Origin: a virus | Taxonomy: Duplodnaviria > Heunggongvirae > Uroviricota > Caudoviricetes | Length of the DNA stretch: 41,509 nucleotides | IMG/VR virus record: IMGVR_UViG_3300028364_000020 | Span: 1 to 41,509 of that record | Strand: one strand, 5' to 3' | Part shown: piece by piece, positions 6,097-36,575 of the stretch | Layout: the number at the start of each line of letters is the position of its first letter | Numbering within the stretch: position 1 is the stretch's first letter | Notes under the pieces: model-generated | The model's input: only the letters and a program-made list of their open reading frames with translations | Databases searched by the model: none | What the model was told of the DNA's origin: nothing | Made by a program: the position numbers and the translations under genes

Positions 6097-8616
6097 ATGA
6101 CAGATAAACAACGTGAAGATTTAACGGAAGATTTAAAAAAACAAGCTGAATTAGAGAGAGAAATAGGTTCTAGTATTGAGGCCTATCTTGACAAAATGAA
6201 AGAATATAAAAAAATTCTTTCAGAAATAAACAAAAACAGAAAAAGAGAAGCTGAATTAGCGAAAATTATTGAGGATGCTGGTGCTAGTGGAAATGAGGAA
6301 GCTCAAATAAAGCTTGGCATCTTGAAAAATCAGACCAGTCTGATGGAAAAGCAAGCTGCTATAAATGGAAACGCACTAGCCTCAATAAGTAAACAAGGTT
6401 TAGTTTCTGCTAAAATTTTTGGTGGTTTAGGTAAAGCAATTGCTGGTTTACCACAAACTATAAAAAAGGTTTATTCATCGTTACAAGCATCAAAACTATT
6501 TGACTTAGATAAAGCGATTAAACAATCAGCTTTATCCATGGGTGTTTTAAGTGGTCAAAGTGGTGGGTTTAGAACAACAATTAAAGCGGCATCATTTGAG
6601 ACAAATAAAATTGGTATAGGCATTGAGAAAATGGCTAAAATGCAGTCCGACTATAGTGAAGAACTTGGAAGGTCGGTCCAATTAAGTAGTGATAGTTTAA
6701 TTGCTATGGGTAGGCTTGCTGCTGCAACTGCGTTAGGTGTTGAAGGGGCTTCTAAATTAAGTGCTGAAATGGACCAACAAGGTCTTTCAGCACAAAAAAC
6801 TAGTGAGTTCATTGAGCAAGCAATGAATGATGCTAGTGCAATGGGTTTAAATGCAAGTAAAGTCGTTAAAAACATTGCGAATAATACTAAAATGCTAAAT
6901 CGCTATAATTTCCAAGGTGGTGTTAAAGGTTTAGCGACTATGGCTAAAACTGTAGCAAAACTGGGTGTCGGGATGGAATTTGCATCAAATTTTGCAGATA
7001 AATTATTTAATGTTGAAGGAGCGGTAGATATGTCAGCCCAATTACAAGTTATGGGTGGTGAATGGGCTAAATTAGGTGACCCATTTCGTTTGATGTACAT
7101 GGCTCGTAATGATATGGCAGGTTTGACTAAAGAATTAGGTAACGCTGCCGCTGCATCCGCACATTTTAACGAAAACGGGGAAATACAAATAGGTGCTAAA
7201 GAAATGCATAAATTAAGAATAATAGCAGAACAAACTGGTGCTTCGTATGACGATTTAGTCACAGCTGGTAAGAATGCTTTTAAATTAAAAAGTATTGGTA
7301 GTCAAATATTTGCGGGTGCTTCAGATGAAGAAAGAGAATTTATTTCAAATATGTCTGAAATAAATGATGGTAAAGCAACGGTTATGATTAATAGTAGCCC
7401 AACTTTAATTAATCAATTAAATAAAGGAACGGTAAATGCTTTAATGAAAGAACAAGAAAGTCTTAATGAAAGAGCTAAAAATGCCAGGACTTTTGACGAT
7501 GCTTTAAATAACACAATAAATGGTATAAAACAGTTTTTACTTCCAATAATCGAAGTAATGAACACAAAGTTAATACCAAAATTGGATAGTTTTGTTGATA
7601 GGTTTGAAAAAGGAAAGTTTGGTGAAAAAATAGAGAAAATAGCTACTGTGGTTGGAGAGTTTATTTCAGTTGTTGGTGGGTTTATGATAGACAACCCTAT
7701 TAAGTCAGCTATTGCGTTATTCTTAGCTGATAAACTAAAATGGATTAGTAGTGGAATGCTATTGGGTACTGGATTTAACAAGGTAGCTAGTGTTGGTGGT
7801 GCTCCTGGGGGTGATATTACTGATGCGTTAAGCAACGGTAGAGGTAACGGTAAAGGTTTTAATATGAAGAGAACCACCGATGCTTTTAAGGGTGGTGGTA
7901 TGAAAGGTGGTATGAAATCTTTAGGTAGACAAGCTAGTTCATCAATGAAAGGATTAGGTGGTGGAAAAGGATTATTAAAAGGTTTAGGAAAAGCTTCTGG
8001 TGTTTTATCAATTGCTGGTGCTGGAATGGATGGATATGAAAACTTAACAAGCGATAAATTAGATACTGGTGAAGCTTTAGCTAAAACTCTAGACCAAAAT
8101 AAATTTATGGCTAGTGGTGCGGCTATTGGTGCTCTATTTGGTGGCGTTGGGGCAATTCCTGGTGCTGGAATCGGTGCTTTGATTGATTGGGCGGTGAATT
8201 CAGCTGGTGGTGATGATGCTTTGATTGGGAACCACATTGGAAGTGGTTATGGTGATAAAGGTCAAGCTTTGAATGATGGGATTATTGGTAGTCCTACTAA
8301 TAAACTTGGTTCTGATTTTTCAAAAGGACGTGGAATAATTCAAGGTGGTAAAATAACACCAATTGATAACAAAGATGACTTATTAGCTATGAAACCAGGT
8401 GGAATTGTTGACCAAGTATCTAAAAATCAAGGTAGTACTGTAATTACACATAAATTTGATGACTTGAAAGTGAGTGGAGAAATAAAAATAACTATACCAG
8501 ATAATCCAGGAATAGCAATAGACCTAATGAAAGACCCAAATTTTGTAAGGGAAATAACCGTTGCTATTCAATCTCAACTTGAAAGGAATATAAATGGAGG
8601 AAAAAATAAAGGATAA
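6097..8616 (+). CDS. Tail tape measure protein
   Basis: 839 aa, helical and Ala/Gly/Lys-rich, with a C-terminal glycine zipper (GAAIGALFGGVGAIPGAGIGALI); position in the tail module. Confidence 0.8.
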   Translation: MTDKQREDLTEDLKKQAELEREIGSSIEAYLDKMKEYKKILSEINKNRKREAELAKIIEDAGASGNEEAQIKLGILKNQTSLMEKQAAINGNALASISKQGLVSAKIFGGLGKAIAGLPQTIKKVYSSLQASKLFDLDKAIKQSALSMGVLSGQSGGFRTTIKAASFETNKIGIGIEKMAKMQSDYSEELGRSVQLSSDSLIAMGRLAAATALGVEGASKLSAEMDQQGLSAQKTSEFIEQAMNDASAMGLNASKVVKNIANNTKMLNRYNFQGGVKGLATMAKTVAKLGVGMEFASNFADKLFNVEGAVDMSAQLQVMGGEWAKLGDPFRLMYMARNDMAGLTKELGNAAAASAHFNENGEIQIGAKEMHKLRIIAEQTGASYDDLVTAGKNAFKLKSIGSQIFAGASDEEREFISNMSEINDGKATVMINSSPTLINQLNKGTVNALMKEQESLNERAKNARTFDDALNNTINGIKQFLLPIIEVMNTKLIPKLDSFVDRFEKGKFGEKIEKIATVVGEFISVVGGFMIDNPIKSAIALFLADKLKWISSGMLLGTGFNKVASVGGAPGGDITDALSNGRGNGKGFNMKRTTDAFKGGGMKGGMKSLGRQASSSMKGLGGGKGLLKGLGKASGVLSIAGAGMDGYENLTSDKLDTGEALAKTLDQNKFMASGAAIGALFGGVGAIPGAGIGALIDWAVNSAGGDDALIGNHIGSGYGDKGQALNDGIIGSPTNKLGSDFSKGRGIIQGGKITPIDNKDDLLAMKPGGIVDQVSKNQGSTVITHKFDDLKVSGEIKITIPDNPGIAIDLMKDPNFVREITVAIQSQLERNINGGKNKG

Positions 8617-8680
8617 ATCTATTGAAAATCAATTACTTATGTTTTTTAATAAAATAAATGAAAATAATATATAAATATAC

Positions 8681-8711
8681 TTGTTTATTTAAAAAAAAAA
8701 TCGTAATTTTG
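8681..8711 (+). promoter_or_regulatory. Bacteroidota-type primary-sigma promoter
   Basis: TTG (8681-8683), N20, TAATTTTG (8704-8711). Confidence 0.55.
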
Positions 8712-8713
8712 TA

Positions 8714-8788
<75 letters not shown>

Positions 8789-9015
8789 TATAAAAAATAA
8801 TAAATAATTAGTTATAAACTTTTTATTTATTATTTTTTTTTATATTTCTTCCAATTAATTAACTATTTATTTTTTAAAAAACTGATATAGTATAGTATTG
8901 TTAACGTAGTTAATAAAACATATAAAAATATATAATATTGTCATTCAGATAAAACTTATTTTTAAAATAAAATATATTTTTTTGTCTTTTTCATTTTATC
9001 TATATATTTATTAAT

Positions 9016-9165
9016 GTGGATACAAAAATAAATAAAACAAACGAAATTCATTTAAGAATCACGGATTCTGTTAAAACTGAATTGCAGAAATATTGTTTGG
9101 AAAACAATATTGGTATGTCTAAATTAATTACTAAATTGATTATAAAAGAATTAGAAAATAAATAA
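9016..9165 (+). CDS. Small ribbon-helix-helix (CopG/Arc-like) DNA-binding protein
   Basis: Not in the ORF track. GTG start, 49 aa: ...NEIHLRITDSVKTELQKYCLENNIGMSKLITKLIIKELENK. Stop TAA overlaps the tnpB ATG (TAATG). Confidence 0.7.
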   Translation: MDTKINKTNEIHLRITDSVKTELQKYCLENNIGMSKLITKLIIKELENK

Positions 9166-10331
9166 TGATTAGGACCTCTAAACATATTATATCAAATGCT
9201 AGTCAAGGGAAGCGAGCTTCCCTTGACCAACTATTTATTGATTATAAACATGATTTAGAAATATATATTAATTATATAATAGAAGGTATATTACCCCTTA
9301 AACCTAATTTATCTAGTAAATTACTTCCTACAGAAGTAATAAAACATAGTAGATATAAACAAATAATTTATAAACAAGCATCAGAAATTATAAGAAGTCA
9401 ATTAGATAAAAGCAAAAAGAAAAGATATTCATCATATAAAAAAACATATGCATATATGATGAAGAATCATCCTGATTCTTCATTCTGTAAAACTAAATTT
9501 TCTGACTTATCATTAAATAATATATTAAAAACTAAATATTTCACTAAACCTAATCTAAATAATGTTAGTATTAATTTAGATGAAAGATTTTTTAACATAC
9601 AAAATGGGAACCATTTTGATAACTTTGTTAATCTTAAATTACCTTATTTTAATGAAAAGGGCACTCGTGCCCTACAAATAAATATACCATTTAATCATCA
9701 TAAACATTCAAACCAATTTAAACATAATACATTTAAATTAAGAAATAACATACAAATTAAGAAGGTAAAAAATAATTATTATATTGCATTAATTTGGGAA
9801 AAAGAGATTGATATTAAAACCAATGGCAAAGCCATTGGAATTGATATGGGTTATAAAAAATTAATTGTTACATCTGATAATCAAGTTATTAATGGTGATT
9901 TAAGTGATATATATTCTAAGATAAGTAGATGTAAACAAGGTAGTAATGGATTTAAACGAAGTTTAAATCATAGAGATAATGAAATAAATAGATTATGTAA
10001 TTTAATTAACATCGAAGATGTTAATTATATAATAATAGAAGATTTAGTATCAGTTAAGACTGGTAAAAAATATTTTACAAATAAAATACAAAGATGGTCT
10101 TACGCCAAGACCATTGATAAAATAAATAGAATATGTGAGGATAACGGTATTATGCTGGTGAAGGTTTCACCAGCATATACCTCACAAACATGTTCTAGTT
10201 GCGGTCATGTAGATAAGAAGTCTCGCCAAGGCGAGACCTTCAAATGTACAAGTTGTAAATATGAAATAGATGCAGATTATAATGCAAGTATTAATATTTA
10301 TGATAGAGGGATTTATAGTTCCTCTAACTAA
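9165..10331 (+). CDS. tnpB: TnpB-like RNA-guided nuclease (IS200/605/607 OrfB family)
   Basis: RuvC-I AIGIDMG, RuvC-II IIIEDL, Zn finger TSQTCSSCG...FKCTSC, RuvC-III DADYNASINI; all three acidic catalytic residues are present. Confidence 0.9.
   Translation: MIRTSKHIISNASQGKRASLDQLFIDYKHDLEIYINYIIEGILPLKPNLSSKLLPTEVIKHSRYKQIIYKQASEIIRSQLDKSKKKRYSSYKKTYAYMMKNHPDSSFCKTKFSDLSLNNILKTKYFTKPNLNNVSINLDERFFNIQNGNHFDNFVNLKLPYFNEKGTRALQINIPFNHHKHSNQFKHNTFKLRNNIQIKKVKNNYYIALIWEKEIDIKTNGKAIGIDMGYKKLIVTSDNQVINGDLSDIYSKISRCKQGSNGFKRSLNHRDNEINRLCNLINIEDVNYIIIEDLVSVKTGKKYFTNKIQRWSYAKTIDKINRICEDNGIMLVKVSPAYTSQTCSSCGHVDKKSRQGETFKCTSCKYEIDADYNASINIYDRGIYSSSN
10304..10326 (+). other. Hairpin at the tnpB 3' end (candidate element right end / omega-RNA stem)
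   Basis: TAGAGGGA-TTTATAG-TTCCTCTA, 8-bp stem with one G-T pair. Confidence 0.5.
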
Positions 10332-27262: not shown

Positions 27263-29584
27263 ATGGCGGTGTTAGATAGAGATAGTTTTGGTTATTTAGG
27301 TTACGATTATCAAATTAGACTAATTGCACAATTTATAACGGATAGAAAATTTAGTGAATCTATTTTAGATATCGTTGACCCAAATTATTTTGCTGACTCG
27401 TATTTGAAAATAATTGTTGCTACAATTAAAGATGCACATAGAATTGATAACATAGTACCAGATATTGGTAGTCTACAATTTAGATTATTAGAAGAAGTTA
27501 AAGACGATATACAACAAAAATACGTCATTGCACAACTTAGAAAAATACAAGAAGCCGATTTAAATGATACATTAAAAGTCCAAGACATGGCTATGAGGTT
27601 TTGTAAACAGCAAGACATGTTGAAGACTTTAGTGAATGTTGAAAAACTAAATAAAAGTGGTGGATTGGATAATTTCGACCAAATCGAAGCTATGTTAAGA
27701 AAATCACTCGAAGTTGGTGATAACAAAGACCAAGGAATGAGTGTCTATGACAACATAAGTAGTGTTTTAGATGTTGATTTTAGGAAACCAATACCAACTG
27801 GTATTTCTGGGTTAGACGAAATAATGGATGGTGGTCTATCCAAAGGTGAATTAGGTGTTATATTAGCACCATTTGGTGTTGGTAAAGCACAAGGTGTTTC
27901 GAGTAAAATTTATACTCCAAGTGGTTATTGTTTAATGGGTGATATTAAAGTTGGTGATAGGGTAATTAATAGGTTAGGTAGACAAACAAATGTTACTGGG
28001 GTTTACCCACAAGGTATCAGACCAATTTACCAAGTAAAGTTTAATGATGGAACATCAACAATGTGTGATAAAGAACACTTATGGTCAGTTAATCAACAAA
28101 CTAAATTGGACCCAAACGATGATTTTACTGTTATGAAAACCAGTGATATTATTGAAAAGTTAAATTCTGACCCTAAAGGTGAGTTTAACTATAAGATTCC
28201 AACAGTTAAACCAGTTATTTTTGACGAAAAAGAATTACCGTTAAACCCATACCTTTTGGGGTTATTAATAGGTGATGAATACTTCAAGTCTTCTATAATA
28301 GTAACTAAAGATTTTGAACTGATAGAATACATTAAACAAAGTATGAGTGGTGATTCAACATACGGTGTTGAAATGTATAAAGATGATGTTATCGTAACCA
28401 TAAATCAAATCACCGATGTAATAAAAAAACTTGGGTTATTTGATTCGTCATCTAATAATAAATTTATACCTAAAGAATATCTATATAACTCAATTAACAA
28501 TAGACAAGAGATTCTACAAGGGTTATTAGATAACGATGGTAGTGTTGGAAAAGATGGTAGTGTTGGATATAATACCGTTTCTAAACAGCTATGTGATGAC
28601 GTTAAAGAATTAGTTCTATCTTTGGGTGGTTCTTGTTTAGTTTCTAATAAAGTAGGGGAATTAACTTATAGATTAGTTATTTCATTTCCTAAAGAAAATG
28701 GTGTAGTTCCATTTAAATTAAACAGTAAGTTAGTCAGAGTGGTTAATAACGATAACCACTCTGACAATAAGTTCATAGAAAGTATTGAATATTCACATGA
28801 TGAAGAAGCTAAATGTATTATGGTTGATGACCCAGAGCATTTATATGTTACAGACGATTTTATCGTCACACATAATACAACAATGATGACAAAAATAGCG
28901 AATACTGGAGCTAATGATGGTTATAATGTTTTACAAATATTTTTCGAAGATAACCCAAAAGTTATTCAAAGAAAACACTTATCTTGTTGGACAGGCATCC
29001 CTCTAAATGATTTGTCGTCACATCATGATGAAGTTATGACGATTGTCGCTGAAAAACAAAAGCTAGGTGATTTAAGATTAGTAAAATTTTCAAGCGATGG
29101 GACAACAATACCTATGATTAGACAATATATCCGAAAATTAATCGCACAAGGGTTTAGACCAGACTTAATCTTATTAGACTACATAGATTGCGTTGAACCA
29201 TCAAGAAAATTTGATGATATAAACGCTGGTGAAGGAAGTGTAATGAGACAATTTGAGACGTTGTTATCTGAACTAGATATGGCTGGTTGGACAGCGGTTC
29301 AAGGAAATCGTTGCGTGCGAATAGATACTGAGGTTCAAATAATTAGGTTGGGTAAAACAGAAATAAAGAATGTTATTGAGGGTGATGAAATATTAACAAA
29401 TGATGGGTATAAAAAAATTACTACTGTTTTTCCAATAGAAAAACAACCAGTTTATAAAATTAAATTAAAGTCTGGTAAGGAAATATTTGTTTCTAGTAAA
29501 CATGAATTCCCAGTTAAATGTGGTAAATTAAGGTCAATATCTACTGGGTTAAGTGTTGGTGATAAATTATTAACTAAAAAATAG
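27263..29584 (+). CDS. dnaB: Replicative helicase (DnaB/T4 gp41-like), N-terminal fragment; contains a contiguous intein and ends in a split-intein N half
   Basis: IPTGISGLDEIMDGGL, Walker A APFGVGK|T, LILLDYID, WTAVQGNR followed by CVRIDT... intein start. Confidence 0.9.
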   Translation: MAVLDRDSFGYLGYDYQIRLIAQFITDRKFSESILDIVDPNYFADSYLKIIVATIKDAHRIDNIVPDIGSLQFRLLEEVKDDIQQKYVIAQLRKIQEADLNDTLKVQDMAMRFCKQQDMLKTLVNVEKLNKSGGLDNFDQIEAMLRKSLEVGDNKDQGMSVYDNISSVLDVDFRKPIPTGISGLDEIMDGGLSKGELGVILAPFGVGKAQGVSSKIYTPSGYCLMGDIKVGDRVINRLGRQTNVTGVYPQGIRPIYQVKFNDGTSTMCDKEHLWSVNQQTKLDPNDDFTVMKTSDIIEKLNSDPKGEFNYKIPTVKPVIFDEKELPLNPYLLGLLIGDEYFKSSIIVTKDFELIEYIKQSMSGDSTYGVEMYKDDVIVTINQITDVIKKLGLFDSSSNNKFIPKEYLYNSINNRQEILQGLLDNDGSVGKDGSVGYNTVSKQLCDDVKELVLSLGGSCLVSNKVGELTYRLVISFPKENGVVPFKLNSKLVRVVNNDNHSDNKFIESIEYSHDEEAKCIMVDDPEHLYVTDDFIVTHNTTMMTKIANTGANDGYNVLQIFFEDNPKVIQRKHLSCWTGIPLNDLSSHHDEVMTIVAEKQKLGDLRLVKFSSDGTTIPMIRQYIRKLIAQGFRPDLILLDYIDCVEPSRKFDDINAGEGSVMRQFETLLSELDMAGWTAVQGNRCVRIDTEVQIIRLGKTEIKNVIEGDEILTNDGYKKITTVFPIEKQPVYKIKLKSGKEIFVSSKHEFPVKCGKLRSISTGLSVGDKLLTKK
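27887..28876 (+). mobile_element. Contiguous class 3 intein (330 aa) with LAGLIDADG endonuclease, inserted in the helicase P-loop
   Basis: Ala1 (AQGV), block B EHLW, block F KCIMV, block G THN|T; LLGLLIGDE and LQGLLDNDGS endonuclease motifs. Confidence 0.9.
29312..29581 (+). mobile_element. Split intein N half (90 aa), helicase
   Basis: Cys1 CVRIDTEV, block B VSSKHEF, ends LSVGDKLLTKK then TAG. Confidence 0.9.
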
Positions 29585-29647
29585 TGTAAATATTTCTATT
29601 TCTGTTACTATTTAATTAGTAAGGATTATGGAGTTAAAAAAAAATAA

Positions 29648-29788
29648 ATGATAGAACACAATTTAAACTTAGACGATTTTGAGTTAGATGAAATTGAATC
29701 AATAGAATTAATCGGAGAAGAGGACACCATTGATATAACAGTAGAGGAAACACATATGTTTTACGCTAATGATATCTATACACACAAT
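29648..29788 (+). mobile_element. Split intein C half (47 aa), helicase
   Basis: EDTIDITVEETHMFYANDIYTHN|S, blocks F and G with Ser+1. Confidence 0.9.
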
Positions 29789-30148
29789 AGTTCTCTTTCA
29801 GCAGAAGTGGTGGAAGCAAACCAAATGGGTGGTTCTATTAAAAAAGGTCAGATTGGTCACTTTATCGTGTCAATCGCTAAAACTTTAGACCAAAAAGATG
29901 ATGGTACAGCAACTATGGCAATACTTAAATCTCGTTTTGGTAAAGATGGTGTTATATTTCAGGATATTAAATTTGATAATTCAAGGATTCAAATCGATAT
30001 GGGTGAAAGTAAAGGTGCTAGGACAAAAAAAGAGCATACTGAAGATAAAAGTGTAAAACAGCAATTAAGAGTTAATACATTATTTGCAGCGGCTAAGGCA
30101 CAAAAAACAAAGACCGAAGTAATGGAGGGGTTAATAGTCCCAGTATAA
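29648..30148 (+). CDS. dnaB: Helicase C-terminal fragment starting with a split-intein C half
   Basis: 47-aa IntC ending THN, then SSLSAEVVEANQMGGSIKKGQIGHFIVSI...AILKSRFG, the helicase C-terminus. Confidence 0.9.
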   Translation: MIEHNLNLDDFELDEIESIELIGEEDTIDITVEETHMFYANDIYTHNSSLSAEVVEANQMGGSIKKGQIGHFIVSIAKTLDQKDDGTATMAILKSRFGKDGVIFQDIKFDNSRIQIDMGESKGARTKKEHTEDKSVKQQLRVNTLFAAAKAQKTKTEVMEGLIVPV

Positions 30149-30177
30149 ATAAATAAAAACAAACAAACAAACAAAAA

Positions 30178-31155
30178 ATGAGTAATATTAGTGGAGTAGA
30201 AGAAATAGAACCAATCTTAGTTAAAAATTCGGACCGTTTTGTTATTTTCCCAATTGAACATGAAGATATTTGGAAATATTATGAAATATCTTTAGAATCA
30301 ATGTGGACGGTAAAAGAAGTTGATTTATCTAAAGATATTGACGATTGGAATAATAAATTAACTGAAAATGAAAGGTTTTTCATTAAAAACGTATTAGCTT
30401 TTTTTGCTGCCTCAGATGGTATCGTAAATGAAAACTTGGCAGAAAATTTTTTAAAAGAAGTTCAGTATACTGAAGCATCATTCTTTTATGGTTTTCAAAT
30501 TATGATGGAAAATATACACAGTAATATGTATTCACTATTGATTGATACGTACATCAAAGACACCAAAGAGCGAAATGAATGCTTTAAGGCGATAGAATAT
30601 ATGGAACCAGTCAAGAAGAAGGCTGATTGGGCTTTAAAATGGATTGAATCCGAATCATTTGCTGAAAGATTGGTGGCTTTTGCTGCTGTTGAAGGAATAT
30701 TTTTCAGTGGTTCTTTTTGTAGTATATTTTATTTGAAATCAAGAGGTTTGATGCCTGGATTATGTGATAGCAACGCATTCATTTCAAGAGATGAAGCACT
30801 ACATTGTGATTTTGCTATTCACTTATTGAATAATCACATCGTAAACAAACCATCTAACGAAAGAATTAAAGAAATTTTCTTGTCAGCATTAGAAATTGAA
30901 AAAGAGTTTATTACCGAATCTTTACCAGTTTCTCTTATTGGTATGAATTCTGAATTAATGAAAAGATATTTAGAATTTGTTGTTGATGGTTTATTGGTTC
31001 AACTTGAATGCGACAAAGTTTTTAACACTAAAAACCCATTTGAATTTATGAACCAAATTGCTTTAAAAACAAAACAAAACTTTTTTGAAGGTCGTTCAAC
31101 AGAGTACAAATCAGCTGATTTAAGTGGACCTATTTCATTTGATGAAGAAATTTAA
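30178..31155 (+). CDS. nrdB: Ribonucleotide reductase class Ia small subunit
   Basis: [40 protein letters not shown] di-iron/tyrosyl motifs. Confidence 0.95.
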
Positions 31156-31166
31156 TAAAAAAAAAT

Positions 31167-32753
31167 ATGCAAGTAATTAAAAGAAACGGGAATAAGATTG
31201 ATTTTAACCCGAATAAAATTCTAACAAGAATTAAAAAACAATCAGAAGGATTAAAAGTAAATGCGGATGATGTATTTATTAAAGTAACACAAGGTATTGC
31301 GGATTTAATGACAACTAATCAATTAGATGACTTAATTTCTGTTGTGGCCGAATCTTTAGCAATGAATCATCCAGATTACTCAATATTAGCCGCTAATATT
31401 TCAATAACTAAACTTCATAAGGAAACTGAGGAATCGTTTATGAAAGCGACTAAAAAGATGTATAACGCTGGTCTATTAAGTGAGGTTTACTTCAATAAAG
31501 TAAAAGATAATATCGAATTAATTGAGTCAGCAATTGATTATAAAAGAGATTTTCATTTTGATTATTTTGGGTGGTGTTCTTTAAAAGATATTTATCTTCT
31601 AAAATTGAAAAACGGTTCAATCGTTGAACGACCACAACACTTATATGTTAGGGTTGCTTTAATGATAACGGGAACACCAGAAGACTTTTTAGAGAAGTAT
31701 GATGATTTAAGCTTTCAAAAAGAAAGTCCAGCAACACCTTTAAAAATTAACATTGGTACCACAATTGGACAAATTGCATCATGTAACTTATCAATAATTC
31801 CAGAGGATTCAACTGATGGTTTATTAAATATTTTATCTAGAATTGCAATTTCATCGTCAAAGGCAGAGGGTATCGGATTAGCTGTTTCTAACATGCGTTC
31901 TAAAGAAAGTAACGTTGGTAAATCTAACGGAAAAGCTGGTGGTATTTTGAAATATTTAAAAATTGTTAATGAAACACTTAGGTTTTGGAATCAACGTGGT
32001 AAACGACCAGGTTCCTGTGCAATCTACATCGAACCATGGCATAAAGATGTATTTGATGTTTTAGATATTAGAAAAAAAACAGGTGATGAAACAATGAGGG
32101 CCAGAGATTTATTTTCGGCCTTATGGAATACAGATAATTTCATGAGAGCAGTTGAATCTGGAGGAGATTGGTATCTATTTTGCCCAGATGACATAAAAGA
32201 AGCTGGTCTAAAACCATTTTATGAAATATATGGTGTTGAATTTGAAGAAGAATACGACAAAGCTGTGGCTTTAGGTATTGGAACCAAGATAAAAGCTTAT
32301 GATTTATGGTTAAAAATATTAGAAGCCCAAATTGAGACTGGTATGCCTTACATGTGTCACAAAGACCATGCTAATAAAAAATCGAACCAAAAAAACGTTG
32401 GTATGATTCATTCAAGTAATTTGTGTGTTGATGGTGAAACAATTATTAAAACAAAATATCATGGTAAGGAAGTTGATTTTAATATTTCCGATGTTGTTAA
32501 CGATTTTAATGTAGAACACGGTATAGAAGTATTAAGTTATAATATTGAAACAAATAAACCAGAATATAAAAAGATAACAAATGCTGCCTTAATGAATGAG
32601 TCAGCTGATGTTTTAAAGATAACTGATGAGGAAACTGGTAAACATATTATTTGCACACCAGAACACCAAATATTCACAAAAAATAGAGGATATGTGTTAG
32701 CTAAAGATTTAGTTGAGACTGATGTATTAGAAATATTAAATACAAAAACGTAA
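31167..32753 (+). CDS. nrdA: Ribonucleotide reductase large subunit, fragment 1 (ATP cone to SSNL) plus split intein N half
   Basis: VIKRNG ATP cone, ASCNL, RGKRPGSCAIYIEPWH, HSSNL|CVDGET. Confidence 0.92.
   Translation: MQVIKRNGNKIDFNPNKILTRIKKQSEGLKVNADDVFIKVTQGIADLMTTNQLDDLISVVAESLAMNHPDYSILAANISITKLHKETEESFMKATKKMYNAGLLSEVYFNKVKDNIELIESAIDYKRDFHFDYFGWCSLKDIYLLKLKNGSIVERPQHLYVRVALMITGTPEDFLEKYDDLSFQKESPATPLKINIGTTIGQIASCNLSIIPEDSTDGLLNILSRIAISSSKAEGIGLAVSNMRSKESNVGKSNGKAGGILKYLKIVNETLRFWNQRGKRPGSCAIYIEPWHKDVFDVLDIRKKTGDETMRARDLFSALWNTDNFMRAVESGGDWYLFCPDDIKEAGLKPFYEIYGVEFEEEYDKAVALGIGTKIKAYDLWLKILEAQIETGMPYMCHKDHANKKSNQKNVGMIHSSNLCVDGETIIKTKYHGKEVDFNISDVVNDFNVEHGIEVLSYNIETNKPEYKKITNAALMNESADVLKITDEETGKHIICTPEHQIFTKNRGYVLAKDLVETDVLEILNTKT
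32424..32750 (+). mobile_element. Split intein N half 1 (109 aa), NrdA
   Basis: Cys1 CVDGETII, block B CTPEHQIF, YVLAKDL, then TAA. Confidence 0.9.
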
Positions 32754-32754
32754 A

Positions 32755-32853
32755 ATGATAAAAATAGAAAAATTAAAAGAAAATAAAAAGGTGTATGACA
32801 TTACAGTTGAAGGTAATAGTAATTTCTTTGGGAACGGTATCTTAGTACATAAT
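32755..32853 (+). mobile_element. Split intein C half 1 (33 aa), NrdA
   Basis: MIKIEKLKENKKVYDITVEGNSNFFGNGILVHN|C. Confidence 0.9.
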
Positions 32854-33738
32854 TGTGCAGAAATTATGGAATCGACTGATTATCAGACAACTGCGATTTG
32901 TACGCTTACAAGTATCCCAGTACATAAATTTATTAAAGATGGTAAATATGACTTTATTGAGTTAGGAAGGGTTGCTCGTTCAATAACTAAATCACTTAAT
33001 ATCGCAATTGAGGTCAATGAATATTCTACAAAAGAAGGTAGAAAAGGTGGTTTAGAGCAAAGAGCATTAGGAATTGGTATTCAAGGATTAGCCGACACAT
33101 ATGCGATATTAAAACTTCCTTTTACTTCAGAAAGTGCAAGGAAATTAAATAAAAACATTTTTGAAACCATTTATTATAATGCACTTAAGGAATCTTGTAA
33201 TTTAGCTAAATCAAGTGGTTTAAAATATCATGGGTATGAAGGTTCACCTATTTCTGAGGGTGTTTTCCAATGGGAAATGTGGGGAATAAATGAAGAAGAT
33301 TTATCTGGTCTTCATGATTGGAAACAATTAAGAGAAGACATAATTAAATATGGTGTTAGAAATTCTTTAGTAACAACAGCACCACCAACTGCTAGTTGTC
33401 AAGTTATTGGAACTAGAATACAAACCGAAAACGGTGTTAAATCCTTTAAAGATATATTGGAAGAAAATAATATCGATTGGTCAGCTTTAGAGGACAACAA
33501 TTTACAACAATGGTTACCATTAAAACCTTTTAATGTAAAAACCACTAATGGTTACGAAGAAGTTGATAAAATTAAATACAATGCGTATTCAGAAGTGTAC
33601 AAAATAGAAATGGAAGATGGTTCTATTTTTGAGGCAACACCAAACCATAAGTTTAAGGTAAATAGAGATGGTCAAGAAACTTGGGTTGAAGTTAAAGACC
33701 TCTTATTAGATGACGATATTTTAAATATTTTCGAATAA
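32755..33738 (+). CDS. nrdA: Ribonucleotide reductase large subunit, fragment 2 (IntC1 - catalytic core - IntN2)
   Basis: 33-aa IntC ending VHN|CAEI, AICTLTS, LGIGIQGLAD, RNSLVTTAPPTAS|CQVIGT... intein start. Confidence 0.92.
   Translation: MIKIEKLKENKKVYDITVEGNSNFFGNGILVHNCAEIMESTDYQTTAICTLTSIPVHKFIKDGKYDFIELGRVARSITKSLNIAIEVNEYSTKEGRKGGLEQRALGIGIQGLADTYAILKLPFTSESARKLNKNIFETIYYNALKESCNLAKSSGLKYHGYEGSPISEGVFQWEMWGINEEDLSGLHDWKQLREDIIKYGVRNSLVTTAPPTASCQVIGTRIQTENGVKSFKDILEENNIDWSALEDNNLQQWLPLKPFNVKTTNGYEEVDKIKYNAYSEVYKIEMEDGSIFEATPNHKFKVNRDGQETWVEVKDLLLDDDILNIFE
33397..33735 (+). mobile_element. Split intein N half 2 (113 aa), NrdA
   Basis: Cys1 CQVIGTRI, block B EATPNHKF, WVEVKDL, then TAA. 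Confidence 0.9.
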
Positions 33739-33791
33739 CCCTCGATGTTTTGTTATCAAATAAAAAATATTAATAAATTAAGAAAAAAAAA

Positions 33792-33896
33792 ATGAAAATA
33801 AAAAAAATATCTAAAGGAGAAGTAAAACCAACATGGGATATTGAAGTACCTAATGTAAATCATTATATAATGGAAAACGGTTGTGTTAGTCATAAC
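33792..33896 (+). mobile_element. Split intein C half 2 (35 aa), NrdA
   Basis: MKIKKISKGEVKPTWDIEVPNVNHYIMENGCVSHN|S. Confidence 0.9.
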
Positions 33897-34409
33897 TCAG
33901 CTAGAGTAATTGGGGCAAACGAAGCATTTGAACCATTTACGTCAAATCTTTATGTTAGAAAAGTAACTGGTGGTGAATTTGCGATGGTAAATAAACATCT
34001 AGTAAGGGACTTAGAAGCTGAAGGATTATGGAATAGAGATATTTTACAAGAATTAATTAAAAGTGAAGGAAGTGTTCAAAATATTTCAGCAATTAGTCAA
34101 GATTTAAAAGACATTTACAAAACAGTTTGGGAGTTGTCACAAAAATCTTTAATAGAAATGTCAGCTGAAAGAGGTCCATTTATTGACCAATCACAGAGTT
34201 TAAATTTATTCTTCGCTACTCCAACGGTAGGTAAATTAACAACAGCACATTTTCTAGCTTGGAGATTAGGGTTAAAAACTGGACAATACTATTTAAGAAG
34301 TCAACCAGTTGAAATGAAAGCTAAACACTTAGCTATTGACATGAGTAAAGTAAAACAACCAGAAAAACCGACAGAAAGTCAATTTGAGTGTGAAGGTTGT
34401 TCTACGTAA
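33792..34409 (+). CDS. nrdA: Ribonucleotide reductase large subunit, fragment 3 (IntC2 plus C-terminus)
   Basis: 35-aa IntC ending SHN|SARVIGANEAFEP, FIDQSQSLN, GLKTGQYYLR, terminal CEGCST. Confidence 0.92.
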   Translation: MKIKKISKGEVKPTWDIEVPNVNHYIMENGCVSHNSARVIGANEAFEPFTSNLYVRKVTGGEFAMVNKHLVRDLEAEGLWNRDILQELIKSEGSVQNISAISQDLKDIYKTVWELSQKSLIEMSAERGPFIDQSQSLNLFFATPTVGKLTTAHFLAWRLGLKTGQYYLRSQPVEMKAKHLAIDMSKVKQPEKPTESQFECEGCST

Positions 34410-34424
34410 AATAAAACAAAAAGT

Positions 34425-34452
34425 AAAAGGGAACCAATTGGCTCCCTTTTTT
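34425..34452 (+). terminator. Rho-independent terminator after nrdA
   Basis: AAAAGGGAACC-AATT-GGCTCCCTTTTTT, one mismatch. Confidence 0.75.
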
Positions 34453-34511
34453 AATTCCTATATTTACTTATAAAAATTAAATGTTATTATATTTATAAAT
34501 TAAAGAATAAT

Positions 34512-34892
34512 ATGGCAAGATTTATAAATATAAACTACCCGTTTAAAGATAGCGATAAAGGACATTTTTTGGCTTTGAATGATAATGATACCCAAGCAGT
34601 AAAAGCTGACCTACTACATCTAATTCTTACTAGAAGAGGTCAAAGACTTTATAAACCAGATTTTGGTACAGATTTAATGAAGTTTATATTCGAACCAAAT
34701 GACGAATTAACAATGAGCGGAATTAAAGAAGAAATCCACAACGTAATAAAAGCATATTTCCCCCAATTGACAATTGATGAACTTTCAATTGTTGAATCAG
34801 AAGAAAGTGACCATGCGGCAACACTAACAATAAGATATTCAATAACAGACGATGTATTTACAACATCAGATATGATTGTTGTAAACATATAA
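34512..34892 (+). CDS. Baseplate wedge / sheath initiator (T4 gp25-like)
   Basis: DLLHLILTRRGQRLYKPDFGTDLMKFIFEP...AYFPQLTI, the gp25/GPW signature. Confidence 0.9.
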   Translation: MARFININYPFKDSDKGHFLALNDNDTQAVKADLLHLILTRRGQRLYKPDFGTDLMKFIFEPNDELTMSGIKEEIHNVIKAYFPQLTIDELSIVESEESDHAATLTIRYSITDDVFTTSDMIVVNI

Positions 34893-36540
34893 ACAAAATA
34901 GTAAAAAATTTTAAAATATATTTTTTATTACCAGAGTCATAAATTCGATAAATACCTCTTTCTAACATTATGTCATGTTCTGACTTGGTTTTATCATAAC
35001 CATCTTTAACTAACAAATCTTTTCGGTAATTAAACCTATATTTCCTTTCTTTATTTATAATATAAAAATAGCTAGGTTTCGAGTCATGAATAAATTCAAA
35101 ACCTAATTTTTCATATAAATTACCAACACTCCATCGTTTATCGGCATAACTAATAACTTCTTTTGGGTTATAATTTTTTATAAAATATTTAAATAATTTA
35201 TCGGCCCCACCAATTACACTCGTATCTAACTCATTGACAAATCTAAGTAATTCATATGAGTTTTCTTTTTTATTTTGACCTAAAATCTTTCTTAAATTAC
35301 CAAAAGTCATTAAAGAAACTAACTTGTTTTCATAATATAACCCTAACCTAATACTTGAATTACTATATCCTTGTAAATGATTATTAATTAAAAATTCTCT
35401 GACTTGTTTTGTTGATACCTCTTTTATTTCACATTTTCTACCATAAACTCTTTTTTGTGTTAAACCAAGAATATTTTTAAGTCTAGATTTAACAATATCT
35501 TGTTTATTTAACCATTCATCCTCAAATATGTGTATTAATTGAATATCTTGTTCTGAACATAATTGTGTTTTATTGAGGTGGTAATTTTTATCTTTATATA
35601 TTTCGGAATGCCAATATAACCCATTATATTCAATAGCTATTTTATGGTCTGGTAAATAAATATCTAATTCAAATGATTTTATTATTTTTCTAGTATTCTC
35701 TATAATTTTAACGTCAAGTGATTTTATAAAAGTCTTTATTTCAATTTCATGAGACGATGTACCATTATTTGAACATTTAATACAACCATTTCCTTGTCTA
35801 TGTGAATCAACCCTTTGATTAAATTCACCATGAATAGGACAAATTATTTCGACTTCACCCTGAGAGTTATTGTAGATTACTTTTGAGTAATCATATTTAT
35901 TATTATGAACTATACTACATATAGTTTTAAAAGTGTCGGTATTGTATATTTTACCTAAACATTCAAAACAACCTTGCTCTTTGGATAGATGGTTATTTGG
36001 TGTTTGTTCGAATTCACCATGAATAGCACAAATTATAGTGACTTTAGTTCTAGAATTAGTATAAACAACTTTTGAATAATCGTATTTATTGTTATGTATT
36101 TTTTGAGCTTTAGATATAAATAACTTTCCATCCATTTTAATTGTACCACCACAGTACATACATCCTCTACCAGATAAATGATTATCTGGCGTTTGTTCGA
36201 ATTCACCATGGATAGGACAAATTATTATAACCTTAGTTTTAGTGTTCTTATATATAACCTTTGAGTAATCATATTTATCACTATGTACCTCATTAGCCTT
36301 TTGAATAAAGAATTCGATTGTGTTCTTCTGTTTATCACTAGTTTTACTTGAACCACATTTTGGACAACCTTGTTTATTACAAATGTGTTTATTAGGTTTC
36401 TGTTCAAATTCACCATGCTCACTACATATTATCTTAAGTTTAGTGTTATTATCTATATAAACTGAATTAGTATAATCATATTTACTGTTATGTATTTTAT
36501 TTGATTCTAAAATAAAATCTTCTATTGTCTTTTTTTTCAT
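34858..36540 (-). CDS. Zn-finger-repeat / Vsr-like putative homing endonuclease with C-terminal GNAT-like domain
   Basis: Four IIC-x2-HGEF-x-Q...H...GC-x2-C repeats, LDIYLPDHKIAIEYNGLYWHSE, IHIFEDEW, then YELLRF...GGADKLF...VISYAD.RWS.G.LYEKLGF. ATG 36540 is preferred because the track start at 36570 lies inside the promoter element. Confidence 0.75.
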   Translation of the reverse strand: MKKKTIEDFILESNKIHNSKYDYTNSVYIDNNTKLKIICSEHGEFEQKPNKHICNKQGCPKCGSSKTSDKQKNTIEFFIQKANEVHSDKYDYSKVIYKNTKTKVIIICPIHGEFEQTPDNHLSGRGCMYCGGTIKMDGKLFISKAQKIHNNKYDYSKVVYTNSRTKVTIICAIHGEFEQTPNNHLSKEQGCFECLGKIYNTDTFKTICSIVHNNKYDYSKVIYNNSQGEVEIICPIHGEFNQRVDSHRQGNGCIKCSNNGTSSHEIEIKTFIKSLDVKIIENTRKIIKSFELDIYLPDHKIAIEYNGLYWHSEIYKDKNYHLNKTQLCSEQDIQLIHIFEDEWLNKQDIVKSRLKNILGLTQKRVYGRKCEIKEVSTKQVREFLINNHLQGYSNSSIRLGLYYENKLVSLMTFGNLRKILGQNKKENSYELLRFVNELDTSVIGGADKLFKYFIKNYNPKEVISYADKRWSVGNLYEKLGFEFIHDSKPSYFYIINKERKYRFNYRKDLLVKDGYDKTKSEHDIMLERGIYRIYDSGNKKYILKFFTILFICLQQSYLML

Positions 36541-36567
36541 ACTTATTGTTTCTTTATTATAACTACG

Positions 36568-36575
36568 CAAATGTA
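36568..36575 (-). promoter_or_regulatory. Bacteroidota-type -7 element for the antisense nuclease gene
   Basis: Minus strand TACATTTG; the same 10-mer (GCAAATGTAC on plus) occurs at 923-932. No clear -33 TTG at the canonical spacing. Confidence 0.55.

Follow-up and report, generated by a model that had tools for sequence, protein, structure and literature searches.

Split inteins, whose N-terminal half (IntN) and C-terminal half (IntC) are encoded on separate open reading frames (ORFs), and fractured phage genes for the alpha subunit of ribonucleotide reductase (RNR) are both known. The subject of this report is a class Ia nrdA gene at positions 31167 to 34409 of a stretch of 41,509 nucleotides, hereafter the window, from the virus record IMGVR_UViG_3300028364_000020 (Caudoviricetes). 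This gene is cut into three pieces, and what appears to be new about it is that two different split inteins occur in one essential gene. With a probability of roughly 0.85, we consider that a single NrdA is made from three polypeptides, which two separate protein trans-splicing reactions would link once translation is complete.

The metagenomic loci NrdA-1 to NrdA-7, among them that of the NrdA-2 split intein, are fractured loci in which nrdA is broken in two (Dassa et al. 2009, PMC2677866). As in the window, a phage-like class I NrdA is interrupted immediately before the thiyl-radical cysteine by a split intein with a negative IntN and a positive IntC (PMC2677866). The halves are separated by a free-standing gene for a GIY-YIG or Vsr-like endonuclease (PMC2677866), as they are in a strain more than 99% identical to the window. 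The window itself differs in that it has no endonuclease gene between the halves at either site and carries a second, unrelated split intein 181 residues downstream, which makes three pieces.

The closest solved relative of the first IntN is the NrdJ-1 split intein (PDB 8ubs and 9omb). Unlike NrdJ-1, the window intein resides in a class Ia NrdA, not in a class II NrdJ, and is inserted before the radical cysteine, which becomes its +1 Cys. The insertion point given for NrdJ (PMC2677866) is after that cysteine, matching the apparent position in the relatives P0005, P0023 and P0037. Split halves that are adjacent, with no intervening gene, are also known from the gp41-7 locus (Dassa et al. 2009, PMC2677866), which however is a single split and lies in a helicase. 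In Aeromonas phage Aeh1 (nrdA-a/mobE/nrdA-b; Crona et al. 2010, PMC3045599), a phage NrdA has likewise been fragmented by a mobile endonuclease and is still functional, but it contains no intein and its pieces are assembled non-covalently by short tails (PMC3045599). The nrdA genes of the Campylobacter phages CP220, CPt10 and IBB_35 contain inteins and have been regarded as degenerating (Dwivedi et al. 2013, PMC3653736). Unlike in the window, the family of the second intein occurs in Campylobacter phages as a contiguous mini-intein.

Both tandem trans-splicing and cyclisation by SICLOPPS (split intein circular ligation of peptides and proteins) have been engineered, and SICLOPPS uses the two halves of one intein. 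In contrast, the halves that flank the middle extein of the window come from different inteins. The middle blocks of engineered multi-part assemblies (Pinto et al. 2020, PMC7090010), in which the N-terminal IntC and the C-terminal IntN stem from different inteins, share this layout, but they are laboratory designs whereas the window holds a natural gene. In the literature searched, where subscription journals are mostly uncovered, no paper describes a natural gene cut in three by two split inteins, and a middle polypeptide of the IntC-extein-IntN type was found only as an engineered design.

Anatomy of the three-piece nrdA

The viral contig that contains the window is 105.5 kb long, with a G+C content of about 30%, and the record is estimated to be about 30% complete. 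Near-identical DNA is present in lake-water and salt-lake metagenomes from several studies; the source is a large lake-water phage, in which the RNR alpha subunit NrdA is an essential enzyme of DNA-precursor synthesis. Three adjoining ORFs on the + strand, F1, F2 and F3, share the class Ia NrdA between them:

31167..32753 (stop codon included), + strand: F1, N-extein 1 and IntN1, 528 aa
31167..32423, + strand: extein 1, 419 aa, C-terminal SSNL (Pfam; alignment to yeast R1 residues 1-430)
32424..32750, + strand: IntN1, 109 aa, Cys1, block B TPEH, NrdJ-1-like (PDB 8ubs; PF14890)
32755..33738, + strand: F2, IntC1, extein 2 and IntN2, 327 aa
32755..32853, + strand: IntC1, 33 aa, block F YDITV, terminal VHN (PF14890 positions 124-155)
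32854..33396, + strand: extein 2, 181 aa, CAE and the CTL cysteine, C-terminal PTAS (alignment to human R1; NrdA of contig L013)
33397..33735, + strand: IntN2, 113 aa, Cys1, block B TPNH (C215 and H298 invariant)
33792..34409, + strand: F3, IntC2 and extein 3, 205 aa
33792..33896, + strand: IntC2, 35 aa, block F WDIEV, terminal SHN followed by the Ser of SARV
33897..34406, + strand: extein 3, 170 aa, barrel positions 393-523, YY pair, C-terminal CEGC

In F1, Pfam recognises the ATP-cone, the all-alpha domain and positions 1-213 of the RNR barrel, followed by the N part of an intein; extein 1 also contains the ASCNL cysteine. F2 matches the C part of an intein, barrel positions 212-462 and then again an intein N part, while F3 matches barrel positions 393-523. 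The initial annotation had described an NrdA in three pieces with a middle piece of the layout IntC1, 181-aa extein, IntN2, and its ORF positions and all of its numbers were reproduced. It had also placed essential residues in every fragment, and alignments to yeast and human R1 confirm this: F1 provides the ASCNL cysteine and the SSNL asparagine, F2 the radical Cys and Glu of CAE and the CTL cysteine, and F3 the YY pair and the terminal CEGC. Taken together, the ATP-cone, all-alpha and ten-stranded barrel domains, the catalytic Cys/Asn/Cys/Glu/Cys set, the YY pair, the C-terminal Cys pair and an NrdB partner characterise a class Ia NrdA.

The stop codon of F1 is separated from the ATG of F2 by a single nucleotide (TAA-A-ATG), and the spacing between F2 and F3 is 53 nt. 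A consensus scan of positions 29500-35200 found no terminator-like site between the nrdA pieces, the single site in that interval being a hairpin just 3' of F3. An independent 2024 assembly from another study contains the whole stretch in one contig, in the endonuclease-free three-piece form; it differs by 21 substitutions with no insertion or deletion listed, although one gap is recorded somewhere in that contig. As judged from this assembly, from the at least 55 protein clusters that share the F2 layout and from the lack of other PF02867 matches in the record, the three-piece arrangement is neither a chance product nor an assembly error.

Both interruptions have the residues of class-1 split inteins

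Joining the three exteins gives 770 aa, and this product aligns with the intact 770-aa NrdA of the related contig L013 without a single gap column and with 81.7% identity. The two junctions of the window agree with the corresponding sites of L013, which read SSNL|CSEI and PTAS|SARV. At both sites the intein halves are on separate ORFs. Intein 1 has Cys1 (CVDGE) directly after SSNL, TPEH, YDITV, a terminal VHN and the +1 Cys of CAEI, which is the radical Cys of NrdA. In intein 2, Cys1 (CQVIG) follows PTAS, and TPNH, WDIEV, a terminal SHN and the +1 Ser of SARV complete the set. The C-terminal ends read LVHN in IntC1 and VSHN in IntC2. Both inteins thus retain every class-1 catalytic residue: Cys1, TxxH, the block F Asp, HN and the +1 Cys or Ser.

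These residues are also conserved. In an alignment of the middle piece with 34 homologs of 45-79% identity, D15, H32, N33, C215 and H298 are invariant, as are the catalytic residues of the extein, and the residue three before H298 is T or S. The +1 position of the intein 2 family is Thr in contig L004, in Klebsiella phage KP13-7 and in Campylobacter phage PC14. Net charges are -8 for IntN1, +1 for IntC1, -11 for IntN2 and +1 for IntC2; the count bears out the earlier statement that the two IntN halves are alike acidic and that the pairs cannot be told apart by net charge.

The anatomy of the locus, its conservation, the differing occupancy in relatives and the presence or absence of an endonuclease gene are observed; that splicing happens is inferred. 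IntN1, which ends F1, would pair with IntC1, which begins F2, and IntN2, the C-terminal part of F2, would pair with IntC2, the N-terminal part of F3. In each rebuilt HINT (Hedgehog/intein) domain, class-1 splicing would then begin with an acyl shift at Cys1 and go on by transfer to the +1 nucleophile, which is the radical Cys of CAEI for intein 1 and the Ser of SARV for intein 2; cyclisation of the Asn and a last acyl shift would follow. The predicted product is a 770-aa NrdA with the junctions SSNL-CAEI and PTAS-SARV, which would work with the NrdB encoded just upstream. Both inteins would be mobile modules that are normally associated with a free-standing homing endonuclease gene between their halves.

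Intein 1, an NrdJ-1-like module

IntN1 matches the NrdJ-1 intein (PDB 8ubs) with an E value of 1e-12 over about 100 residues (chain residues 8-106). The match of IntC1 to residues 118-148 of the NrdJ-1 chain is weak (E 0.1) and lies outside the best matches of IntC1. The insertion site, immediately before the radical cysteine, is the one used by the split inteins of the metagenomic loci NrdA-1 to NrdA-7; at the tip of the active-site loop, the cut separates the Asn from the radical Cys.

In the relatives L008, L009, L012, P0005, P0023 and P0037, the C-extein begins SEI or CEI. Intein 1 thus appears to have at least two alleles, the one in these relatives apparently lying after the radical Cys, one residue further on, a position deduced from the start of the C-extein alone. 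The IntN1 of the relatives with the shifted allele is only 41% identical to that of the window, whereas their exteins are 81% identical.

Intein 2, a large and mostly split family

With a limit of E <=1e-3, 372 representative clusters fall into the IntN2 family, and with E <=1e-10 there are 102. For 36 among the 40 best clusters, the match ends within 10 residues of the C-terminus of the protein, which marks these as split N-halves. No solved relative of IntN2 or IntC2 was found in the PDB, where the best genuine intein match of IntN2 reaches an E value of only about 0.15. The top PDB matches of IntN2, the designer repeat proteins Cake and Scone, were rejected as spurious sums of weak repeat matches.

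Members of the family occupy the same NrdA site in the Campylobacter phages PC14, NCTC12673 and others. In PC14, the intein is a contiguous mini-intein (APTA|C...SHN|TS), the chain of which passes directly from an IntN2-like to an IntC2-like part where the window has a stop, 53 bases and a start. Outside Campylobacter phages, contiguous forms were seen only as a few internal matches in the IntN2 family search. In a survey of IMG/VR, nrdA was contiguous at both sites in 72 of the 92 stretches classed, and none of the 92 had an in-frame contiguous intein at either site.

The initial annotation had proposed structure prediction of the IntN/IntC combinations. For IntN2 with IntC2, the predicted complex reached an interface score (ipSAE) of 0.81, compared with 0.02 for the best of three controls, with at least 94% contact agreement between runs and a partner confidence score (pLDDT) of at least 77. 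In calibration, the mark applied to such models was reached by 51 of 78 solved complexes and by 2 of 108 mismatched pairs; the pass of IntN2-IntC2 may reflect memory of, or likeness to, solved split inteins, and it concerns predicted binding only. Since the two halves are contiguous in PC14 and associate in the complex model, the data support the view that IntN2 and IntC2 together make up a single HINT domain.

Expected specificity of pairing

IntN1 and IntN2 share no similarity detectable by BLASTP (E 5.2), and the two inteins are, as far as their sequences tell, unrelated and independent mobile modules. Because they come from unrelated families, pairing should be specific, and the two pairs are expected to be orthogonal. 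Precedents exist in that the gp41-1, gp41-8, NrdJ-1 and IMPDH-1 split inteins as well as that of SspGyrB are mutually orthogonal and up to six units have been joined in one pot (PMC7090010).

In F2, the flanking IntC and IntN are not from the same intein, as they would be in a construct of the SICLOPPS type. Because IntC1 belongs with IntN1 and IntN2 with IntC2, F2 is not of the self-cyclising type. An AlphaFold2 model of the whole of F2, built from 34 sequences, leaves IntC1 undocked (residues 1-41 at pLDDT 29-40, IntN2 at 63-87), which fits non-complementarity but is weak, negative evidence.

A third split intein is present in the gp41/DnaB-like helicase upstream, which is encoded in two pieces (27263-29584 and 29648-30148, + strand) and in which the charge polarity is reversed (IntN +7, IntC -15). 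The N-terminal helicase piece holds, in addition, a contiguous intein with LAGLIDADG endonuclease motifs. With this third split intein, an infected cell would therefore have to sort three IntN/IntC pairs. A further PF14890 match without internal stops is found at 65767-66111 of the genome record, about 24 kb past the window. By these matches, the visible 105 kb of the phage contain at least five inteins.

Relatives and occupancy of the two sites

A search with the F2 protein showed that at least 55 of the best 120 clusters cover both IntC1 and IntN2, with 42-79% identity; some clusters with an F2-like layout are on contigs of up to 566 kb. Among contigs that share the synteny helicase-nrdB-nrdA-gp25, all four occupancy states are found:

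no intein: L013
site 1 only: L011 (GIY-YIG gene between the halves), L018
site 2 only: L010 (ORF between the halves), L016 and nine clusters of 714-715 aa
both sites, no endonuclease gene: L008, L009, L012, L017 and the window
both sites, with intervening ORFs: L006, L004, L005, L014

Since each intein occurs alone in syntenic relatives, each would work without the other. In a DNA search of a phage collection, the matches were confined to short extein stretches of Tenacibaculum and Cellulophaga phages and are uninformative on the architecture.

Both splits also occur in a cultured phage, Klebsiella phage KP13-7 (OP617745), whose middle piece has the same layout and is 31% identical along its entire length. 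At site 1 it has an ORF that looks GIY-YIG-like by sequence, and at site 2 another ORF. Several of its nrdA pieces are annotated as hypothetical proteins. Its first nrdA break is a different one (L095, 820-3106: a 292-aa piece, a 128-aa ORF and a 236-aa piece); this break is without an intein signature and resembles fragmentation of the Aeh1 type.

An extra upstream nrdA break is present in L004 (1488-4106) and L014 (1809-5074), where an IntN-like half closes a piece of about 400 aa. The downstream side was read in L004 only: a 68-aa IntC-like ORF ends in HN followed by GGGK, with Gly at +1 and hence no nucleophile, and the next piece begins MKRKGS about 285 nt further on. This extra break may be a non-splicing joint or an intron. 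In L006, a TnpB/OrfB_IS605-type gene with a Cas12f1-like TNB domain (8349-9593) directly follows the last nrdA piece.

Endonuclease genes and the origin of the splits

In contigs with an identical F2 protein and 99.2-99.7% nucleotide identity to the window, IntN1 and IntC1 are separated by a gene for a GIY-YIG/NUMOD endonuclease of 386 aa, and this insert replaces the last 12 bases of IntN1. The window lacks the endonuclease gene between the halves that defines a 'fractured gene', its gaps being 1 nt and 53 nt. At site 2, a free-standing ORF separates IntN2 from IntC2 in the relatives L004, L006, L010 and L016. Pfam matches of the L004 ORF are limited to Mom and DUF7487, and the Pfam search matched no family in the ORFs of L006, L010 and L016; their identity as endonucleases at site 2 is putative. 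The best reading is that two independent invasions of the 'fractured gene' type left the splits behind as scars and that the window strain is without both endonuclease genes.

A 570-aa ORF on the - strand (34858-36570) encodes repeated treble-clef zinc-finger units and a Mom-like C-terminal domain. It contains ...IEYNGLYWH..., which has no Pfam match and which we take to be a Vsr-like motif. Over 294 aa, the protein is 45% identical to the L004 ORF located between IntN2 and IntC2. It would be an endonuclease-like free-standing gene such as those found at site 2 in other contigs, but in the window it lies two genes downstream and on the opposite strand. L010 and L092 have a like gene at the same place.

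Alternative explanations

If the intein halves were merely docking domains, as are the tails of NrdA-a and NrdA-b in Aeh1, the three pieces would assemble non-covalently and no peptide bond would be made. The fragmented NrdA of Aeh1 is active without splicing (PMC3045599), and non-splicing joints seem to exist in the nrdA family itself because the extra break of L004 and L014, with a Gly at +1 as read in L004, does not allow canonical splicing. We nevertheless regard docking alone as quite improbable: it would need neither Cys1, TxxH, the terminal Asn nor a +1 nucleophile, yet all of the splicing residues are present at both sites, invariant or nearly so in the 34 homologs, and site 1 cuts between Asn and radical Cys within the active-site loop. 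The halves could, on the other hand, react in the wrong combinations. A reaction of IntN2 with IntC1 would cyclise or polymerise the catalytic piece, and one of IntN1 with IntC2 would join F1 to F3 and skip F2, and such products might have a function of their own. F2 does have the IntC-target-IntN topology of engineered cyclisation, and several points weigh against clean three-part ligation: IntC1 and IntC2 are 37-39% identical, although only the generic block F/G pattern is common to them, and net and local charges are alike in the two pairs, both IntN halves being acidic and both IntC N-termini basic, so that electrostatic capture would not discriminate between them. Alternative products of this kind are nonetheless very unlikely, considering that IntN1 and IntN2 are unrelated, that each intein stands alone in some relatives, that IntN2 and IntC2 are contiguous halves of one mini-intein in Campylobacter phages, that IntC1 is not docked on IntN2 in the AlphaFold2 model, a weak and negative point, and that different intein families are orthogonal in experiments (PMC7090010). 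Moreover, the skip product would be without the radical Cys, the Glu and the second Cys, and a cyclic 181-aa barrel fragment would have no evident function. There is an equally slim chance that low-level non-cognate reactions yield products with a regulatory role, a natural alternative splicing at the protein level. Of the two readings offered by the initial annotation, three-part ligation is thus upheld by the residues, the gapless product and the conservation, and cyclisation, skipping and alternative splicing find no support, given two unrelated inteins each of which occurs alone.

The gene could also be decaying, a pseudogene shattered by mobile elements, with RNR supplied by the host or by another phage gene. 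Interrupted nrdA genes of Campylobacter phages have been read as degenerating (PMC3653736), and a second nrdA could lie in the remainder of the genome, the record being only about 30% complete; both points count against a functional three-piece enzyme. A second intact nrdA, which the initial annotation had named as a sign of a pseudogene, was not found: PF02867 has no match in the 105.5-kb record beyond F1, F2 and F3. All three ORFs are open, the exteins are gapless relative to the intact gene of L013, an intact nrdB adjoins, and the layout is kept in independent assemblies of the same strain and, at identities as low as 42%, in 55 or more protein clusters. Ratios of non-synonymous to synonymous substitution (dN/dS), taken against relatives with about 80% extein identity, are 0.06-0.17 for the exteins, 0.22 for IntN1, 0.09-0.26 for IntC1, 0.21-0.25 for IntN2 and 0.23-0.24 for IntC2; dS is near saturation, which also weakens the case and makes these values rough, and the more distant relatives L017, L006 and L004 were left out since their synonymous sites are saturated. 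Conservation of the three-piece layout under purifying selection is well supported by these comparisons, and decay of the gene is barely plausible.

Neighbouring features

The order nrdB-nrdA-gp25 is common to the window and its relatives, and nrdB probably belongs to the same operon as the nrdA pieces. The features that border the three ORFs are:

30178..31155, + strand: nrdB, RNR small subunit, the partner subunit, directly upstream (PF00268, E 1e-104)
34425..34450, unstranded: G+C-rich palindromic hairpin and T run, just 3' of F3 (consensus scan)

Significance

If three-part ligation is correct, an essential natural enzyme needs two different trans-splicing reactions on one middle polypeptide. 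The locus would also provide a naturally co-evolved orthogonal pair for one-pot ligation of three fragments, one member being NrdJ-1-like with a +1 Cys and the other coming from a large, structurally uncharacterised family with a +1 Ser or Thr. Since KP13-7 is cultured and has the same two splits, three-part ligation is directly testable. The occupancy series, in which neither, the first, the second or both sites are filled, with or without an endonuclease gene and in contiguous or split form, shows how genes become and stay fractured, and it includes the presence and absence of the endonuclease within one phage species. Finally, if the reading holds, annotations as hypothetical proteins or pseudogenes may conceal functional genes among the heavily interrupted nrdA genes of phages.

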